Positions 12,311-22,102 of a stretch of DNA of 64,000 nt are shown piece after piece (the stretch's first letter is position 1; every line of letters begins with the position of its first letter). Below the pieces are notes generated by a model. That model saw nothing but the letters and a program-made list of their open reading frames with translations. It did not search any database and was not told the DNA's origin. The position numbers and the translations under genes are program-made. The DNA comes from a virus (Duplodnaviria; Heunggongvirae; Uroviricota; Caudoviricetes), in IMG/VR virus record IMGVR_UViG_2565956726_000008. The stretch is one strand, 5' to 3'.

Positions 12311-13015
12311 ATGCGCAATATTCCGAGAGAAATGATTATTGATTCCGTCGATGCCGGAGTCGGCGCGGTAATTGACTTGTTTGAATTAGACCTCACGCCC
12401 CTGGGTGGCGAGGTTATCCGCTTCCATTCCGGCGTGAATGGCTATTACGGCCCGGTTATCTGGAAGGGGGTGGCTTACAACAGCTACCCTATCGAGGCCA
12501 CTGGCTTCGAAATGAAAAACGAGGGTGTCTATTCACGCCCGCAAATGGTTGTAGCCAACATTGGCGGCCTAATCACCGGGATGAATAACGATTTCAACGA
12601 CCTGCGAGGAATGAAAGTTACACGCCGCCAGGTGGAAGTAAAATACCTGGACGCCATCAACTTCCCCAACGGCAACCCGGATGCAGATCCGTCTATCGAG
12701 GCGGTGTCTTTTTACGTCGTTGAGGCGATGAGCGAAGAAACAGCCGACCAGGTGCAATATGAGCTGTCAACGCCAATTGATGCTGACAAGGCGGTTATCC
12801 CAGGGCGCACAATCCTTGCTGACGTTTGCCAATGGCAATATCGCGGCGACGGTTGCGGATACAGTGGCGGCCCTGTAGCTACTGATAAAGACGAATCGAC
12901 CAGCGATCCAAAGCTGGATAAATGCAGCCACCGCCTGAGCGGTTGCCGTTTACGTTTCCCGCGCCCGAATCCGTTACCAATTTCATGTTTCCCAGGATCG
13001 AGCAAGGTGGGTTGA
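12311..13015 (+). CDS. minor tail protein L (lambda gpL-like)
   Basis: 234 aa; Cys-rich C-terminus as in lambda L. Confidence 0.85.
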   Translation: MRNIPREMIIDSVDAGVGAVIDLFELDLTPLGGEVIRFHSGVNGYYGPVIWKGVAYNSYPIEATGFEMKNEGVYSRPQMVVANIGGLITGMNNDFNDLRGMKVTRRQVEVKYLDAINFPNGNPDADPSIEAVSFYVVEAMSEETADQVQYELSTPIDADKAVIPGRTILADVCQWQYRGDGCGYSGGPVATDKDESTSDPKLDKCSHRLSGCRLRFPRPNPLPISCFPGSSKVG

Positions 13016-13017
13016 TT

Positions 13018-13749
13018 ATGGCACTTGAAGATAAAATGATTCGCTATGCAGCAGCCCACCCGCGCGAGGAAGTGTGCGGGCTGGTGATAGATAACGATTA
13101 TTTTTACCCGTGCGCTAACGTGTCTGAAACGCCGCACAACAGCTTTAAAATCTCGCCTGACGATTATATCAAAGCTGACGAATTGGGCGTTATAACAGCC
13201 GTTTTCCACTCTCACGTTGAAGATATTCCGGTATTGTCGGCACGGGATCGACAACAGCAGGTTATTTCCGGCCTGCCGTGGTTTTTATGTTCCGGTGGCA
13301 GGGTTAGAAAATTCCGCCCGGTAGCGCACCTGTTAGGCCGAAAATTTGAGCACGGGAAAACAGACTGCTACGCGCTTTTCCGCGACGCATATCACCTTTG
13401 TGGCGTGGATCTACCGGACTTCGAGCGCCTTGATGGCTGGTGGCTGCGTGGGGAAAACCTGTACATAAAAAACCTGCCATTGAACGGGTTTTTCATGGTT
13501 GATGCGCAAAGCATTCAGCCTGGTGACGTGATTATTCGCCAGCCGTTCAAGGGTGCTGACCCATGTCACGCGATGATTTACCTGGGCGATAACACTGTTT
13601 TGCATCATGACAATGCCGGACTGCTAAGCCGCCGCGAGCAAATGCGGCCCGCGTATGTTCGACAAACGCATTCAATATGGAGATCTGACAAATGCTCAAA
13701 TTTAGATTTACGGGCAATCTTCGAAGATATTACGGCAAAGTGTGTTTAA
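13018..13749 (+). CDS. tail assembly protein K (JAB/MPN + NlpC/P60-like)
   Basis: Starts MALEDKMIRYAAAHPREEVCG as in lambda K; ATG 2 nt after the L stop. Confidence 0.8.
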   Translation: MALEDKMIRYAAAHPREEVCGLVIDNDYFYPCANVSETPHNSFKISPDDYIKADELGVITAVFHSHVEDIPVLSARDRQQQVISGLPWFLCSGGRVRKFRPVAHLLGRKFEHGKTDCYALFRDAYHLCGVDLPDFERLDGWWLRGENLYIKNLPLNGFFMVDAQSIQPGDVIIRQPFKGADPCHAMIYLGDNTVLHHDNAGLLSRREQMRPAYVRQTHSIWRSDKCSNLDLRAIFEDITAKCV

Positions 13750-14222
13750 ACGTTGATACGCCAGCACAAGGACTTAGCCTATTGACCGCGCAGAATCAGG
13801 AGTTCAAGAAGGCTTTTTTAAATACACCTTTGCGGTTACGGATTGCCGGGAAAGATTATAACGAAAAGACGGCCCCGGCAGCGGTTAATAGTAAATACCC
13901 TGACGGAACTACCGTCATTATTGCGCCAGTAGTTGAAGGCGGTATTGCTGGGATTGGTGTTGTAGGCTGGATCCTGATTGGTGTTTCGGTGGTTAGCGTT
14001 GCGTTCTCAATCTTTATGTCCCGCAACATGAAGATAAAAACATCGGCAGAAAGCGCACAAGATAACACCATAACGAACAACACCTACACCAGCATTGAAA
14101 ACAAGGTGGGCCAGGGTAGACCAGTGCCAATACTATTAGGTGAAATGAAAATAGGTTCAAACGTCGGATCGTTAGGCATAGACACAAGCAACAATAGAGA
14201 CGCCTTAGACGTTGTAAGTTAA
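13692..14222 (+). CDS. tail assembly protein I (lambda gpI-like)
   Basis: 176 aa; Gly-rich hydrophobic middle segment; position between K and J. Confidence 0.75.
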   Translation: MLKFRFTGNLRRYYGKVCLNVDTPAQGLSLLTAQNQEFKKAFLNTPLRLRIAGKDYNEKTAPAAVNSKYPDGTTVIIAPVVEGGIAGIGVVGWILIGVSVVSVAFSIFMSRNMKIKTSAESAQDNTITNNTYTSIENKVGQGRPVPILLGEMKIGSNVGSLGIDTSNNRDALDVVS

Positions 14223-14235
14223 CAGGAGAAAAACC

Positions 14236-17200
14236 ATGAGTAGCGGCGGCGGCAAAGCCAAAACACCAACATTATTGAACGATAACCTGTATCACAAACA
14301 GTTTTATCGTGTTTTAGATATTCTCAGCGAAGGGCCGATATACGGTCCGGTAAACCAGAAAGCGCCATTGAATGACGTGATGCTTAATGACACTCCTGTT
14401 ACTGACGCAAACGGGAATACATCAATTCCGGGGATTAGTATAGCCTGGCGCAACGGCACGGCTGACCAATCGCCGATTAATGGTTTTAACGCCATTGAGT
14501 CAACCGTTATTGTCAACGCAAAGGTAACTCACGACACACCAATAATCAGGACTGTTTCAGATCCAAACGTTACCCGCGTCAGGTTGAATCTTGGTGTTGA
14601 TGCTCTCGTTCAGTCAGATGAAAAGGGCAATCAATATAATACATCCGTCATGTTGATGGTTGATGTTAAACCGTCATCATCTTCTACGTGGTCGCTGATT
14701 AAAGACATACACATTGGCCCTGGTAAACAAAGCGGTGAATACCTGGAAGCTCACATCATTAAAGCGCCGGATGAAAAACCGTTTGATATTCGCGTTCGTC
14801 GCATAACACCAGACAGCAACGGCGATCTATTGCGGAATGATACGCGGTGGAGTAGTTACAGCGAAATAATAGATGATAATCTGTCTTATCCTCATACCGC
14901 TGTAGCTGGCGCCGTAATTGACCATGATCAGTATACTGATACGCCTACCCGCACCTATCACCTTCGCGGCCTGATTGTTGATGTGCCTGACAACTACAAC
15001 CCTGAAACGCGCACATATTCAGGTTTATGGCTTGGTGGATTTAAAAAGGCGTATACCAATAACCCTGCATGGCTTTTCCGGTATCTGGTTAAAAACGAGC
15101 GCTTTGGACTTGCTCGACATGCTGGTTACATTGATGTTGATGATGGCGCTTTGTACGTGCTTTCTCAATACTGCGATCAGTTGGTTGATGATGGCTATGG
15201 TGGCCTTGAACCTCGCATGACGCTTAACGCTTACATTACGGAGCAAATGAGCGCCCGCGACCTACTGGATAACATCGCAGGTATGTTCCGTGGTATCGCG
15301 TTATGGGACGGACAACGTCTTACCGTGATGATTGATGCGCCACAAGATCCAATCGCCACCATCACAAATGCAAACGTCGTTGATGGCGCGTTTACTCGTT
15401 CAAGTATCGCACGCGCAGAATGCTACAACGCCGTGATCGTATCCTGGACTGACCCTGAAAACGGCTGGGAGCAATCAAAAGAATATGTCGCAGATGATAA
15501 ACTAATCGCCCGTGATGGTTATAACGAAACCACGTTGGAGGCGTTCGGTTGCACTTCACGCGGGCAAGCGCACCGCGCTGGTAAATGGCTGATCGAAACA
15601 GCGAAACGCGAGCCGTCAAAATTCACATTTAAAATGGCCCGTGACGCCATTCACTTTACGCCGGGGGATATAATCGAGATCCTCGATAATAATCGCGCAG
15701 GCGCTCGTTTAGGCGGTCGCATCGTGGCGAACAATGGCAGAGCGATCACGGTCGACAAGGTTGATTCTGAATATATCGCGGCTGGCGACACCATCAGCTT
15801 ACTTGATAGCGATGGTAAATTTAAAAAACACCAGATCATCGGAGTTAACGGGAACATTATCACCCTTGCAGCCGCCCCGGCGTGGATTCGTAACGGCACT
15901 GTTTTTGCTGTATCAACCAACGCAGCAAAACCCGTTTTATGTCGAATCACCAGTGTAGCAGAAACAGAAAATAACAGCGTATACACCATCGAGGCCGCAC
16001 AGCATGATCCACATAAGCAGGCCGTAGTCGATAATGGCGCAATCTTCGAGATCAATAACGACACGCTTAATCACTTCCGCGTGCCGAACATTGAAAATCT
16101 GAAGGTGTTAAACGTTGGATCTGAAACGGTTCAATGTCGCGCAACATGGGAAACACAGACGACAACGCGTCGCCTGACCTTTGAGATTCGCGTGTATAAC
16201 GCCGAAGGCGCTGTAGTTAAAAGCTACGAAACCACGAATTACAGTTATGATTTTTATGGCATTGATGCTGGCAACTACTCATTAGGCATTCGTGGCAGAA
16301 ATGACACGGGCATGAAGGGTGCGGAAAGCATTGTCGATCTGGTTATTGGCGCACCAGCGGCCCCAGTTGGCGTTAATTGGGTTCCCGGTGTATTCCAGGC
16401 TACAGTTTACCCGATCAGCAGAACAACGCTCACCACTGATACCAGTTACGAGTTTTATTACTCAGGTGAAACGCAGATCACTGATCCGGCATCAATAACC
16501 ACTAAAGCACAATATACCGGGCGTGGTCATCAGTGGACGTTTGGCGGCATGAATACAGGTCACACATATTACGTTTATGTGCGCGCGCGTAACGCTTTTG
16601 GTGTGTCTGACTTTGTGGAAGCGTCAGGTAAGCCAACAGAAAACTTTGATGAAATTACCGATTACGTCACCAAAGACGTAATGAATTCCAAACAATTTAA
16701 AGAAATGGTTGGTGACATTAAAGATCTAGGCGACCGCACTGATCTTATCGAAAGCGCTACGAATGACCTTAAAACTGCTACTGACAACCTCAAAACTGCA
16801 ACTGATAATCTGACCAACATAACTGACGATTTAAGGACTGAAACTGACAACCTAACCATAGAAACAGGATCAATAAAAGCTGATACTGATACGCTCAAAA
16901 AAGAAACGGAAGATCTTTATAAAAAAGTTAAGGAAAACGCCGATGATATTGGACAGCATGAGTCGAGAATCGACTCGCTGGAGGTGTCTAGCGAAAAAGT
17001 TGGCAGCGAACTGGCGCAAGCAAAAGCAAGTCTGCAAAACGCCTCACTTGCTCTTATTAATAACTCGCTTGCACAGACTAACACTCGCGTAACTCTTACC
17101 GCTCAGTACAAGAAAGGCAGGACAGAGACGAAAGCGGAAATTGACCGCATTGACAACGTTATCGCTGAAGAGAAAAAAGCGACAGCGGAATCACTGGAAA

Positions 17201-19098
17201 CCATCACGGCAGAAATGAATGTGATGGACACAAACCTTAAAGGTCAGATCTCTAATGTGCAACGCGCAGTAGCTGACGAGGCCAGCGCCCGCGCTGAAGC
17301 TATTAACGGTGTAAATGCCTCAATAAGCAATCTTGACAAGAAAACTGACGCCAGCGTAAACCGTCTTGATCAGGCAATTGCAGACGAAACAAGTGCGCGT
17401 ACTCAGGCTATCAGCGACGTGAACGCAAGTATCTCAACACTTGACAAGAAAACTGACGCCAGCGTTAAGCGCCTCGATAATGCAATATCAGATGAAACGC
17501 AGGCAAGAAGCGACGCAATAACAGTGGTTAAAGCTGATTTAACAACGCTTGAAAATAACACAAATGCCAGTGTTAGCCGTCTTGATCAAGCTATCGCTGA
17601 TGAATCAAGCGCACGTGCTCAGGCGATATCAGGTATCAGCGCGACGCTTGGCGGCGTTAAAAGTGAGGTTGATAAAAACAGCGACGAGATAGATCAGGCG
17701 AAAGCAAGTCTGCAAAACGCATCTCTGGCGCTTATTAATAACTCAATGGCGCAAAGCAAGATGAGCACTGTTATTGAGGCGAAATACAGGAAAGGACAAA
17801 CAAAAACAAAAGCGGAAATAGCAAGGGTAGACACAGCAATCGCAGATGAGGCGAGCGCACGCGCAGAAGCTATTAGCGGGGTTAATGCGTCAATTTCCAC
17901 GCTCGATAGCAAGGTGACAAGCAACGTAACCAGGATGGATAAAGCGATCGCAGATGAGAAGAATGCACGCACTGACGCAATCAGCAGCCTTAACTCATCG
18001 CTTACCAGTACGATTAATTCGAAAGTATCCGAAGTGTCAACTGCACTTTCTACGCATGAAACATCAAGCGCGGAAAAATTTGGCCAGATCTCGGCATCTT
18101 TCGACGATGTAAACTCAAGCATCACGGAATGGTCACAGGCTATGGCAACGGCAGACGAGGCATTGTCAACCAGAATCGACCAGTTGAAAGTAACTATTAA
18201 CGGAAACACAACGGCGATAGAAACGACATCAAAAGCACTGACTGACTTCAAAGGTAACGTTGATGCGTCATATTCAATTAAGATTGCCACTGATAAAAAC
18301 GGTATGAAATACGCTACAGGAATGTCGCTCGGCCTTACTGGTAGCGGGACTAACGTTCAATCGCAGTGTATTTTCCTCGTTGACCGTTTCGTGCTTATGA
18401 CTGCGGCAGGTGGCTCCTATCAGACCCCGTTCTATGTTACTAACGGTGCTTGCTACATCCGTGATGCGTGGATCAGAGACGCATCAATCACTACCGCGAA
18501 GATTGCGCAGCAAATTCAGTCAACCAACTATAAAGCTGGTTCGGCTGGCTGGATGCTAAATAAAAACGGCAATGCGGAGTTCAACAACGTCACTGTACGC
18601 GGTACGGTGTACGCAACATCTGGTAAATTCACTGGTGAGATTCAGGCCACAAGCGGGAAGTTTAAAGGTACAGTAGAGGCAAAGTCATTTGTCGGTGACG
18701 TTGCTAACATGGGGGTTGGTCCAGATCGAGTGCTTGGGCATAACGGAAGTTATAGCGCAACCATCACATATAAAGACAGCACGGATAATGCATTGACGAA
18801 ATCAGTTATGCTTATGGCGACTATTTCATTAATGTCTGGTGAATATAGATCCACTTATAACGTAACGTTTAGTTGCGGAGATAAAAACAAAACAATTTCA
18901 TATTACGTGCCTTATGGTGGATGCACATTAACAGTGCAATGCGCTTTTTCTGGTTTAAAAGCATCAGATATTATCGGGAAAATATATTGTCCTCAAACAT
19001 CATCATCTGAAGGATACGCATATTGTACCGCGTTGTATTCTCCAACAATGATAGTAGCAAGAGGCACCGGATCATTTAGAACATCAACGACAGCATAA
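14236..19098 (+). CDS. host specificity / tail tip protein J with expanded repeat region
   Basis: 1620 aa; N-terminal ~990 aa collinear with lambda J (ISEGPIYGPV, FGCTSRGQAHRAGKWLIETA); central coiled-coil tandem repeats; distinct C-terminal domain. Confidence 0.85.
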   Translation: MSSGGGKAKTPTLLNDNLYHKQFYRVLDILSEGPIYGPVNQKAPLNDVMLNDTPVTDANGNTSIPGISIAWRNGTADQSPINGFNAIESTVIVNAKVTHDTPIIRTVSDPNVTRVRLNLGVDALVQSDEKGNQYNTSVMLMVDVKPSSSSTWSLIKDIHIGPGKQSGEYLEAHIIKAPDEKPFDIRVRRITPDSNGDLLRNDTRWSSYSEIIDDNLSYPHTAVAGAVIDHDQYTDTPTRTYHLRGLIVDVPDNYNPETRTYSGLWLGGFKKAYTNNPAWLFRYLVKNERFGLARHAGYIDVDDGALYVLSQYCDQLVDDGYGGLEPRMTLNAYITEQMSARDLLDNIAGMFRGIALWDGQRLTVMIDAPQDPIATITNANVVDGAFTRSSIARAECYNAVIVSWTDPENGWEQSKEYVADDKLIARDGYNETTLEAFGCTSRGQAHRAGKWLIETAKREPSKFTFKMARDAIHFTPGDIIEILDNNRAGARLGGRIVANNGRAITVDKVDSEYIAAGDTISLLDSDGKFKKHQIIGVNGNIITLAAAPAWIRNGTVFAVSTNAAKPVLCRITSVAETENNSVYTIEAAQHDPHKQAVVDNGAIFEINNDTLNHFRVPNIENLKVLNVGSETVQCRATWETQTTTRRLTFEIRVYNAEGAVVKSYETTNYSYDFYGIDAGNYSLGIRGRNDTGMKGAESIVDLVIGAPAAPVGVNWVPGVFQATVYPISRTTLTTDTSYEFYYSGETQITDPASITTKAQYTGRGHQWTFGGMNTGHTYYVYVRARNAFGVSDFVEASGKPTENFDEITDYVTKDVMNSKQFKEMVGDIKDLGDRTDLIESATNDLKTATDNLKTATDNLTNITDDLRTETDNLTIETGSIKADTDTLKKETEDLYKKVKENADDIGQHESRIDSLEVSSEKVGSELAQAKASLQNASLALINNSLAQTNTRVTLTAQYKKGRTETKAEIDRIDNVIAEEKKATAESLETITAEMNVMDTNLKGQISNVQRAVADEASARAEAINGVNASISNLDKKTDASVNRLDQAIADETSARTQAISDVNASISTLDKKTDASVKRLDNAISDETQARSDAITVVKADLTTLENNTNASVSRLDQAIADESSARAQAISGISATLGGVKSEVDKNSDEIDQAKASLQNASLALINNSMAQSKMSTVIEAKYRKGQTKTKAEIARVDTAIADEASARAEAISGVNASISTLDSKVTSNVTRMDKAIADEKNARTDAISSLNSSLTSTINSKVSEVSTALSTHETSSAEKFGQISASFDDVNSSITEWSQAMATADEALSTRIDQLKVTINGNTTAIETTSKALTDFKGNVDASYSIKIATDKNGMKYATGMSLGLTGSGTNVQSQCIFLVDRFVLMTAAGGSYQTPFYVTNGACYIRDAWIRDASITTAKIAQQIQSTNYKAGSAGWMLNKNGNAEFNNVTVRGTVYATSGKFTGEIQATSGKFKGTVEAKSFVGDVANMGVGPDRVLGHNGSYSATITYKDSTDNALTKSVMLMATISLMSGEYRSTYNVTFSCGDKNKTISYYVPYGGCTLTVQCAFSGLKASDIIGKIYCPQTSSSEGYAYCTALYSPTMIVARGTGSFRTSTTA

Positions 19099-19138: not shown

Positions 19139-19384
19139 TTATTTTTTACACCCATCATTTACACCAGAAAAATGGATAGGTAAATTACATTCACTGTCAA
19201 TAATTTTACCTTGTAGTTGTTTTTCTTTCCATGAGTCAGTATTGAAATAACTCGAACGTTGGTTATCAAGGCCAGTATCACCATATTGAGCAGTGCCAGC
19301 ATCACTCTTATCTGTCGAATTTACAGAAGCAAAAGCACCAAAAGACAGAGCTGATAAGATGCAAGCAACAATTAGTTTTTTCAT
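19139..19384 (-). CDS. small secreted protein (signal peptide, two Cys), cargo at lom-equivalent position
   Basis: 81 aa from MKKLIVACILSALSFGAFA; AT-rich; between J and tail fibre. Confidence 0.5.
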   Translation of the reverse strand: MKKLIVACILSALSFGAFASVNSTDKSDAGTAQYGDTGLDNQRSSYFNTDSWKEKQLQGKIIDSECNLPIHFSGVNDGCKK

Positions 19385-19581
19385 TGTATTCACCTTACTG
19401 TTTGTTTTACTGTCATTTGTTGTTCGTGATGATCCACCCATCCGATGAGCAAATCACCGCAGAAGCTATCATTTCGTATGTTGATATAGATCAAAAAATA
19501 CACTATGTATAAGCCCAAAGTGTAACACAGATCACAAAATGGTAGAATTGTTTAGTTAATTAACAAAACGGAGTTATTGCG

Positions 19582-21378
19582 ATGATTTACACAACAGGCA
19601 CTATAGCTGTTAGCGGAAACACAGTTACCGGGGCAGGGACTGAATTCAACGCCGCATTATCTCTGATCAGAGTGGGTTGCACTCTTATTGCCATTAGCGA
19701 TCCGGTGCAGATTTTTTCAATCACAAAGGTAAAAAGCGCAACAAGTTTGTCGGTAACTCCTGCGGCAAGTCCGGCTATTCCGGCTGGAACTAAATTTAGC
19801 ATCCTGCTTTCAGATTCGATCTCTGTGGATGGTCTTGCTCAGGATGTTGCCGAAACACTGCGTTACTACCAGGGCAAAGAATCAGAAATAGCTGACGCTG
19901 TGGAGTTTTTCAGCGACAACAAAGATGTGATTTCAGCATCAAAATTAGCATTAGCATCAGCTACCACTGCAACCAATGCGGCAACAACAGCGACAAGCGC
20001 CGCCGATTCAGCCAAGACATACAGAGACGAAGCCCACGAATACGCCAATCAGACCGCACAGCCTTACGCGTATGTTTTGCAACCGCTGCCGGACGTATGG
20101 ATACCGTTTAACGATTCTCTCGATATGATCACGGGCTACGGCCCTGGTACTAAAAAAGTAACCATTAATGGGGAAGAAAAAACAATATCATCAGATAAAG
20201 TTGTTTCTTTCTCACGCGCAAGCACTGCTACTTACATTAACAAATCAGGTGTTTTAACTGTGGCTGGTATTAATGAGCCACGTTTTGAACGCGAAGGATT
20301 ACTGATTGAGGGGACGCGCACAAACCTGTTAATAAACAGTACAGACCCTTCGAAGTGGAATAAGTCAACTTCACTGGACGTTACAGAAACAGGCACAGAT
20401 AGTTTTGGGTTTAATTATGGCCGGTTTGTCGTACAGGATTCGATTGTTGGTACAAGTAAAGCGCATACCATTATCGGACTGTATTCGAGTGCCGGAGGGG
20501 TTGATACTTCAGGGGACGAAAAGCATGTAACTATATCCTGTCGGGTAAAAAGTGAAGTTGATAATATCGCCGTTCGTATTTTATTTGAACATTATGATGG
20601 GGAGGTAAGGACATCAATAGGAGCAGCAAACCTGAACCTTACCACCCGCATAATTAGCAAGACAGGTCAGACAAGCCGTGTTACAGCAAGGTCTGTTAAG
20701 GATGATGCAACTGGCTGGATATTTTTTGAGGCTACATTAAAAGCAGATACAACAGAAAATACGGTTGGTGGTTTCGTCCAGTATTCTCCGGATACAGGTC
20801 AGATGGTGGCATCAGGGGATTGTCTCGATGTAACCACTCCACAGATTGAGGCTGGTGCAGGCGCATCATCTTTTATTGTTACGGGGTCGGCACCAGCAAC
20901 GCGGGCAAGCGATATGGTGACAGTCCCAATCAAGAATAACCTTTATAATCTTCCTTTTACGGTTCTTTGTGAGGTACATAAGAACTGGTATAAAACGCCA
21001 AATGCAGCGCCGCGTGTTTTTGATACCGGCGGTCATCAAACCGGAGCGGCGATCGTAATGGGGTTTGGTTCATCAGGTGGGTACGACGGTTTTCCGTATT
21101 GTGATATAGGTGGTTCAAACCGACGAATAAATGAAAATGCCGGGCTGGAAAAAATACTTATTGGTATGCGGGTAAAGTCCGAACGGTCCACATGTGTAGT
21201 CAGTAACGGTAAGTTAAGCAGCGAAACAAAAACAACCTGGACTTATATTCAAAGCTCCGCAACTATTCGTATCGGTGGTCAGACAACGACAGGACAACGT
21301 CATTTATTTGGTCATGTTAGAAATTTTCGAGTATGGCATAAGGCATTAACTGATGCGCAATTAAGCGAAATTGTTTAA
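19582..21378 (+). CDS. tail fibre protein (prophage A)
   Basis: 598 aa, Ser/Thr/Ala-rich fibrous N-terminal part, position after J. Confidence 0.65.
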   Translation: MIYTTGTIAVSGNTVTGAGTEFNAALSLIRVGCTLIAISDPVQIFSITKVKSATSLSVTPAASPAIPAGTKFSILLSDSISVDGLAQDVAETLRYYQGKESEIADAVEFFSDNKDVISASKLALASATTATNAATTATSAADSAKTYRDEAHEYANQTAQPYAYVLQPLPDVWIPFNDSLDMITGYGPGTKKVTINGEEKTISSDKVVSFSRASTATYINKSGVLTVAGINEPRFEREGLLIEGTRTNLLINSTDPSKWNKSTSLDVTETGTDSFGFNYGRFVVQDSIVGTSKAHTIIGLYSSAGGVDTSGDEKHVTISCRVKSEVDNIAVRILFEHYDGEVRTSIGAANLNLTTRIISKTGQTSRVTARSVKDDATGWIFFEATLKADTTENTVGGFVQYSPDTGQMVASGDCLDVTTPQIEAGAGASSFIVTGSAPATRASDMVTVPIKNNLYNLPFTVLCEVHKNWYKTPNAAPRVFDTGGHQTGAAIVMGFGSSGGYDGFPYCDIGGSNRRINENAGLEKILIGMRVKSERSTCVVSNGKLSSETKTTWTYIQSSATIRIGGQTTTGQRHLFGHVRNFRVWHKALTDAQLSEIV

Positions 21379-21727: not shown

Positions 21728-22102
21728 GTGTACCAAATAGTGACCAAATATCAAAAACTAAAATCAAAAACAACATAACATTATGTTTTATAAATGATTA
21801 TTCGTTACACTAATCATTCCAGACAGGACTGGTGAGTAAGTCCAGGGTATTGAAGTTGTGCGTAATCATTGAGATCCCGTTATTTTTATCAATTTTTGTT
21901 GCTATCCGATCGCAAAAAAGCCACGTCATATGATCAGATAATTCTGATAATGATAGACGCTATTTAACACTTCACACGGTTTGTATATGGAAAAGCATTT
22001 TGCTTTTTGTATTCAATTTAGACAGAATTTTATTAATCATTTCAGGGTAATGGGGTGATGAGATGTTGCGTAACAGGGCCAGAAGGCTAGACTACAAAAT
22101 AA

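Follow-up and report, generated by a model that had tools for sequence, protein, structure and literature searches.

The mEpimmI phages' J proteins, lambda gpJ, the F-type pyocin central fibre and T1 gp33 are the described proteins closest to the gene analysed here, the J gene of a 64,000-nucleotide (nt) stretch of viral DNA, IMG/VR record IMGVR_UViG_2565956726_000008 (hereafter the window; coordinates refer to it, and features lie on the plus strand unless marked otherwise). The 'mEpimmI' group was defined in PMC11893012, which detected J in mEp021 virions by mass spectrometry and describes the J proteins of the group as varying in size, with 'repeats of different length (positions 950-1,475)'. 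Length-variable repeats in J are therefore already on record for this group (PMC11893012), and the available text of that paper holds no dissection of the repeat units, of their helical register or of an exact-unit allelic series. In lambda gpJ (PDB 8iyk, 8xck, 8xcj), a helical segment of about 50 residues (809-861) separates FNIII-2 from the beta-prism, and these helices become beta strands on LamB binding (PMC11101478). The F-type pyocins (F2 PA0641, PDB 25vf; F7) and T1 gp33 (PDB 9l9p) resemble the window's J in having a long shaft between FNIII and a Phage_Tail_Tip-like beta-prism, but their shafts span 160-250 residues, and neither tandem units of 36 amino acids (aa) nor copy-number polymorphism has been reported for them. 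The window's J (14236..19098; an intact open reading frame (ORF) of 1620 aa encoding the central tail fibre/tip attachment protein) carries at this place an insert of about 500 repetitive residues, which very probably forms the shaft of a trimeric central tail fibre, built from in-register coiled-coil modules and variable in length through their gain and loss.

The element is an mEpimmI-group (mEp021-like) Escherichia coli prophage adjoining ydaN/zntB. Its J gene shares 84-90% nucleotide identity with the J genes of the mEp021 group and of MagusPhagus, over 65-87% of the gene, and the window's heptads, headers and 36-aa units, described below, were also detected in mEp021-group J. Together with the L-K-I-J gene order, these repeats constitute the likeness to the J proteins of mEp010, mEp013, mEp021, mEp044, mEp515, mEp554 and MagusPhagus; the difference is that the window's 1620-aa allele, with four plus two units, and its C-terminal type are absent from the six characterised phages. 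The gene order follows from the three ORFs preceding J (12311-13015, 12922-13749 and 13692-14222), whose counterparts in relatives carry the annotations minor tail protein L, C40 peptidase (K) and tail assembly protein I, so that J occupies the position it has in lambda-type tail-tip loci.

The assignment of the protein itself rests on several comparisons. PHROGs places it in PHROG 31 ('central tail fiber J'), and lambda gpJ (PDB 8iyk_J) matches it with E = 7e-187. Five Pfam models (PF24801, PF13550, PF24421, PF24489 and PF09327) all exceed their gathering thresholds: FNIII-A_GpJ (aa 88-214), Phage-tail_3 (aa 335-492), Ig_J (aa 609-707) and Ig_J_second (aa 709-811) in the N-terminal half, and Phage_Tail_Tip/DUF1983 (aa 1327-1464) further on. 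Ig_J_second (FNIII-2; PF24489; 16362..16668) is the last conserved domain ahead of the repeats, and the Phage_Tail_Tip beta-prism domain (PF09327, E = 3e-40; 18214..18627) aligns with lambda gpJ residues 832-1000, T1 gp33 and the F2-pyocin fibre. Domain order is as in lambda gpJ (hub, FNIII/Ig, Phage_Tail_Tip), and in both proteins a helical segment stands between FNIII-2 and the beta-prism. Within aa 812-1326 the Pfam scan matched no domain. As a separate observation, Pfam PF28217 is listed on the shaft part of some database homologues (among P0003, P0004 and P0005), and a curated model of the coiled-coil region may therefore already exist. The NCBIfam model lambda_TipJ (NF049904) failed as a full-length match, scoring 725 bits against a cut-off of 1950 and covering aa 1-944 only; judged by sequence, J is a lambda-J homologue and not a lambda-J equivalog. 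NCBIfam matches to SMC, Rad50 and 'helix-rich protein' fell far under their cut-offs and were taken as compositional coiled-coil similarity, not homology.

An earlier note on this DNA, made from the sequence alone, had put J at about 490 aa over lambda J, and the measured lengths (1620 versus 1132 aa, an excess of 488 aa) agree with it. The whole excess sits between the end of the last Ig/FNIII domain (about aa 811) and the start of Phage_Tail_Tip (aa 1327). The lambda gpJ alignment covers J aa 1-851 and resumes at about aa 1314, onto lambda residues 832-1000, and a split of this kind indicates that the additional ~490 aa are an insertion where lambda has its short helical segment. The contrast between some 500 repetitive residues in the window's J and about 50 in lambda accounts for the 488-aa excess.

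Repetition begins past the FDEITDY anchor (J aa 804), which is kept in nearly all homologues. The heptad tract (aa 833-927; 16732..17016), delimited by a Tandem Repeats Finder period of 21 nt, by register and by periodicity, comprises about eight units of the form (D/N)L(K/T/R)x(A/E)TD followed by less regular heptads. Past the anchor, the series reads SATNDLK TATDNLK TATDNLT NITDDLR TETDNLT IETGSIK ADTDTLK KETEDLY and continues to aa 927, with the heptads TATDNLK TATDNLT NITDDLR TETDNLT... at aa 840-916; the 21-nt period was reported at 16756-16805, and the repeat search also gives family D6. A two-fold super-repeat follows. It opens with header 1 (aa 928-974; 17017..17157; QAKASLQNASLALINNS...KKGRTETKAEIDRIDN), recognised from DNA repeat family D4 and from its alignment to header 2, and continues with a degenerate 36-aa unit standing in register (aa 975-1010; 17158..17265; VIAEEKKATAESLETITAEMNVMDTNLKGQISNVQR), which is only 17-22% identical to the clear units and is weakly detected in relatives by a hidden Markov model (HMM) of the unit. 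Block 1 (aa 1011-1154; 17266..17697), supported by repeat families D1/D3, the 108-nt spacing and the unit HMM, consists of four 36-aa (108-nt) units scoring 58-66 bits, with a periodicity of 3.60. Header 2 (aa 1155-1200; 17698..17835; repeat search and alignment to header 1) precedes block 2 (aa 1201-1272; 17836..18051; unit HMM and allele comparison), which has two 36-aa units and is the site of the copy-number polymorphism. The non-repetitive distal shaft (aa 1273-1335; 18052..18240), a candidate fold-switch segment according to AlphaFold2 models with and without an alignment, leads into the beta-prism, and the protein ends in the C-terminal receptor-binding region (aa 1465-1620; 18628..19095), whose type, ending in ...RGTGSFRTSTTA, was assigned by comparison of C-termini.

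In total, the 46-aa header occurs twice and the clear 36-aa unit six times, in addition to the degenerate one. The header copies beginning with QAKASLQNASLALINNS start at 17017 and at 17695/17698 and are 83% identical across 59 nt (family D4), and alignment of aa 928-1154 with aa 1155-1381 scores 334, where shuffled sequences reach 63 +/- 9.6. The six clear units, with the consensus A-I-A-D-E-x-x-A-R-x-x-A-I-S-G-V-N-A-S-I-S-T-L-D-x-K-T-D-A-S-V-x-R-L-D-Q, share a mean in-register identity of 47% (range 31-75%; 8.5% in shuffled sequence), and at the DNA level the repeat search found copies 108 nt apart with 74-81% identity. Tandem Repeats Finder reported only the 21-nt array and missed the 108-nt units, which are too diverged for its threshold (44-69% nucleotide identity). 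Self-BLASTP of J returned the trivial self-match only, and in-register identity, shuffles and the unit HMM were used instead.

These measurements bear on most of what the earlier note had said of the region. The short repeats that it placed after the conserved part of J are the 21-nt-period heptads of aa 840-916. The segment of about 227 aa that it described as occurring twice does start near 17017 and 17698, but 227 aa is the period of the super-repeat and the second copy is shortened: it consists of the 46-aa header and two units, lacks the degenerate unit and two further units, and then gives way to unique sequence. Its sub-repeats of about 38 aa are likewise real, with a unit length of 36 aa (108 nt). 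Its limits for the repeat region, 16650-18060, were accurate for the repeats, while the helical region continues, in a single-sequence model, to about aa 1335 (nt 18240). The coiled-coil character that it assigned to the region is supported by the predicted helices, by the hydrophobic periodicity and by the alignment with the F2-pyocin fibre.

As a monomer modelled from the single sequence, AlphaFold2 predicts helices at aa 819-959, 964-1185 and 1191-1335, with a predicted local distance difference test score (pLDDT) of about 70, interrupted only at KKGR (aa 960-963, header 1) and RKGQT (header 2). The heptad tract has a hydrophobic periodicity of 3.52 and the 36-aa units have one of 3.60, and no such peak occurs in the flanking domains. 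When 370 units (161 distinct) of 56 proteins are combined in a profile, positions 2, 13, 16, 20, 23, 31 and 34 hold I, L, V, M or F in 87-100% of cases and position 27 holds T or V; E5 occurs in 100% and R9 in 94%. The core positions of the unit are accordingly 2, 5, 9, 13, 16, 20, 23, 27, 31 and 34, with E5 and R9 filling the remaining slots, and their spacing of 3-4-4-3-4-3-4-4-3-4 amounts to two heptads and two hendecads, or ten helical turns per unit. The distal shaft aligns with the F2-pyocin central fibre (25vf_A; J aa ~1206-1446 versus residues 946-1185), of which residues 907-1084 were solved as a trimeric coiled coil (bioRxiv 10.64898/2026.02.24.707460). The F2 shaft differs in being formed mainly of heptads with one stutter, whereas each of the window's units contains two hendecad stutters and has a periodicity of 3.6; T1 gp33 shares a header-plus-'IADETQAR' arrangement, residues 849-900 of 9l9p_S aligning with the header 2 region. 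By analogy with these homologues and with lambda, the J shaft would adopt a trimeric coiled-coil state.

The length of this shaft was compared across 56 complete J ORFs of 1350-1914 aa, taken from phage records, complete E. coli genomes and IMG/VR contigs. Protein searches for homologues with the repeat region or the C-terminal part returned nearly exclusively short 'partial' proteins and no full-length J, and were unfit for length statistics. Among the 56 homologues, the segment from the anchor to header 1 measures 89, 96, 103, 110, 117, 124, 138 or 152 aa, in steps of 7 that keep the heptad register, the number of 36-aa units ranges from 0 to 14, and header blocks number one or two. The comparison of J length and repeat number in related prophages that the earlier note had proposed therefore yields differences in multiples of 7 or 36 aa; internal repetition is present and the architecture is not identical in all homologues, the reverse of both outcomes named there as speaking against it.

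The finest evidence comes from four alleles which are at most 2 nt apart outside the repeat and measure 4863, 4971, 5079 and 5187 nt. They carry 0 (window, L026, L027), 1 (CB7286 and at least nine others), 2 (GN04592, L021) or 3 (LP-26) extra nucleotide-identical 108-nt units inserted at window position 17836; L026 and L027, which have the window's allele, are IMG/VR isolate contigs. Overlapping BLAST pieces and the unit sequences place at this indel junction a 42-nt stretch (17836..17877) identical in the missing and the retained unit, and this shared stretch is the putative crossover or slippage site. The window has the shortest allele (units 4+2) of a lineage in which 4+3, 4+4 and 4+5 also occur, and it is probably a one-unit deletion derivative, since 4+3 is the commonest allele. 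As the earlier note had suggested, the region is a substrate for recombinational length variation: the series of 0, 1, 2 or 3 identical units demonstrates such variation of the J shaft, while we infer the recombination mechanism itself.

The shaft would be a greatly expanded counterpart of the short helix of lambda gpJ between FNIII-2 and the beta-prism/receptor-binding end, its modules being heptads, 36-residue units and a two-fold super-repeat with a header and units in each copy. Modules would be added or removed by unequal homologous recombination or by replication slippage, giving rise to alleles of differing shaft length. As the modules are multiples of 3 nt and neighbouring copies contain identical DNA stretches, gain or loss of whole modules would keep both the reading frame and the coiled-coil register. 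Each 36-aa unit would change the length by about 5.3 nm if the shaft is fully extended, and shaft length may in turn affect fitness.

Several points weigh against this interpretation. The J shaft was modelled by AlphaFold2 as a monomer only, which demonstrates neither a trimer nor full extension; the helix breaks predicted in the headers may act as hinges or as points where the shaft folds back; length has been linked to no phenotype; and the repeat count of any single assembly, the window's included, could be an assembly error. The recurrence of equal counts in independent complete genomes argues against assembly error in general. That the three helices fold back as an antiparallel bundle was considered unlikely, given that the three segments vary independently in length among homologues. 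Other mechanisms of variation were also considered. A contingency (phase-variation) locus was rejected, the units being 21 or 108 nt and all 56 of 56 alleles being in frame. The reading as target of a diversity-generating retroelement (DGR) was rejected as well, the window lacking a template repeat: blastn of 16600-19098 against the whole window gave internal repeats only, the presence of a reverse transcriptase gene not having been separately checked.

The same set of homologues separates shaft length from the receptor-binding end. At least six C-terminal receptor-binding types were distinguished, every one of which is combined with several lengths of shaft: 4, 5, 6, 7, 8 and 9 units accompany the window's type, 4-14 the LamB type, and 4 and 12 the OmpA type. 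The window's C-terminal region is 100% identical in CB7286, GN05505, FAH, LP-26 and GN04592, while its last 150 aa share no more than 42% identity with the corresponding ends in the LamB- or OmpA-dependent mEp phages. In the database, P0004 (437 aa, 43 member sequences) is likewise 100% identical to the window's C-terminus. Between GN05505 and CB7286 there are 295 nt differences up to nt 2415 of the gene (aa 805) and none afterwards, and so sharp a breakpoint at J aa 805 indicates that shaft and receptor-binding tip were exchanged as one cassette at a domain boundary. Across the set, the alignments demonstrate that shaft and receptor-binding end assort independently.

These data bear directly on the possibility that repeat number itself sets the receptor and host, so that host range would switch through repeat change; the earlier note had called the duplications a plausible substrate for host-range variation. 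The repeats do lie directly upstream of the receptor-binding end, and shaft length could affect the reach to outer-membrane proteins through O-antigen or capsule. However, receptors given in PMC11893012 (LamB for mEp010, mEp013, mEp044 and mEp554; OmpA for mEp021 and mEp515) can be set beside unit counts from the HMM: OmpA-dependent mEp021 has 12 units and mEp515 has 4, and LamB-dependent mEp013 has 4 and mEp044 has 12. OmpA-dependent phages thus have 4 or 12 units and LamB-dependent phages 4 to 12, receptor classes follow the C-terminal sequence type, and the window's own C-terminus is found with 4-9 units. With the same receptor served by 4 or 12 units, the host-range part of the note's proposal is not supported as stated, and we regard a direct role of repeat number in host choice as improbable; on the comparison of homologues, receptor choice tracks the C-terminal domain and not the number of repeats. 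A further account, to which we give similarly little credence, would attribute the variation to neutral drift, or to repeats collapsed or expanded during assembly. In its favour, length has no known phenotype, and many database homologues are 'partial', cut at contig ends in or near the repeats. Yet independent complete genomes and IMG/VR contigs contain the same alleles, all length changes keep the reading frame and the helical register, and the units, although only 44-69% identical in nucleotide sequence, conserve their core residues at 87-100%, diverged DNA with a conserved core pointing to purifying selection on each unit.

The remaining proposal is compatible with the length-variable coiled-coil shaft favoured here and adds a function to it: the repeats may be a metastable coiled coil (or an extension of one) that refolds into a beta-prism at receptor binding, unit number setting the stored energy and the shortening between tip and membrane. 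We hold this possible but tentative. The switch is proven in the homologous F7 pyocin and, on a smaller scale, in lambda gpJ: in the central fibre of F7, a 163-residue coiled coil turns into a beta-prism upon target binding, and the same preprint (PMC12874032) describes a strand motif, SxSxxMxxLxS, whose M positions carry acidic-Arg pairs, regards Asp/Glu-Arg pairs four residues apart as salt bridges stabilising the coiled coil, and predicts such a switch for 21 of the 24 siphophage central fibres that it tested. The alignment of J aa ~1206-1446 with F2-pyocin fibre residues 946-1185 connects the distal shaft to this family. Matches to the motif number 30 in aa 812-1335 of J, compared with 9.2 +/- 3.0 in shuffles, and every 36-aa unit contains one in forward and one in reverse orientation; the motif is permissive, and its enrichment is overstated, the units being mutual copies and not independent. 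Relative to the coiled coil, the S positions of the motif are outside the core and its L and M positions are part of it, as PMC12874032 describes. The near-invariant E5/R9 pair (i, i+4) occupies core positions of the unit and resembles, in its spacing, the Asp/Glu-Arg pairs of F7, although E5 and R9 both fall off the M positions of the matches found in J.

Structure prediction adds that aa 1278-1335 is helical in AlphaFold2 without an alignment and a beta-meander with a 76-sequence alignment (pLDDT 83.5), and that the alignment-based model fits the lambda fibre more closely in its open, LamB-bound state (8xcj_F, E = 4e-16) than in its closed state (8xck_F, E = 4e-8). Alternative conformations were, however, predicted for aa 1278-1335 only: the 36-aa units stay helical with a pLDDT of 91-95, in a part where the alignment is thin. 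Moreover, a switch of some 500 residues would be three times the largest known, and the papers in support are preprints that deal with a distant homologue. The evidence is therefore suggestive of a predicted fold switch for the distal 60 residues and only compatible with one for the 36-aa units. That the 36-residue units act as modular 'cartridges' of a coiled-coil-to-beta-prism switch, each forming one beta-hairpin after binding, is similarly tentative. If it were true, the natural alleles of 2 to 14 units, including the series of 0, 1, 2 and 3 additional units, would amount to a ready graded set in which length and stored energy vary for the largest metamorphic protein segment known in a non-contractile phage tail; and if the shaft does switch fold, the near-isogenic alleles would allow the length of the metastable segment to be tested against adsorption, tail-tip opening and DNA ejection.

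For the favoured reading, that of a modular coiled-coil shaft changing in length by whole units, the J gene provides a well-documented case of change in tail-fibre shaft length independent of the receptor-binding tip. Repeat variation would explain the range of J from about 1350 to 1914 aa in this prophage family, and J length or repeat count is unsuitable for inferring the receptor. The repeat region would also explain the frequent breakage of J in draft assemblies. Nearly all database homologues of distal J (P0004-P0086) are 'partial' and begin in or just past the repeats, and partial homologues starting there suggest that short-read assemblies routinely break at this point.

Minor observations concern the surroundings of J and its complementary strand. 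J starts 14 nt past I in the window, and a 567-nt gene located between I and J in mEp021 (putative HNH endonuclease) and mEp515 (hypothetical protein), at positions 2437-3003 of L001 and L003, is absent from the window and from most relatives. A minus-strand ORF (17694-18290, 198 aa) inside the repeat region lacks support from homology and was taken as spurious; it probably arises from the Ala/Ser-rich codon composition of the opposite, sense strand. On the 3' side of J lie a small signal-peptide/lipoprotein-like gene (19139-19441, minus strand) and a gene for a 598-aa protein (19582-21378, plus strand), whose RefSeq relatives are annotated as 'phage head spike fiber domain-containing'; lipoprotein superinfection-exclusion genes occur in the mEpimmI group according to PMC11893012. 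At the right prophage junction (window ~21778-21818), about 7.4 kb, from abgT' through part of dgcM, are missing in comparison with CB7286 (L008 27654-35108), and the window's arrangement, with the prophage beside ydaN/zntB, is common to LP-26, M1/5, FAH and others.

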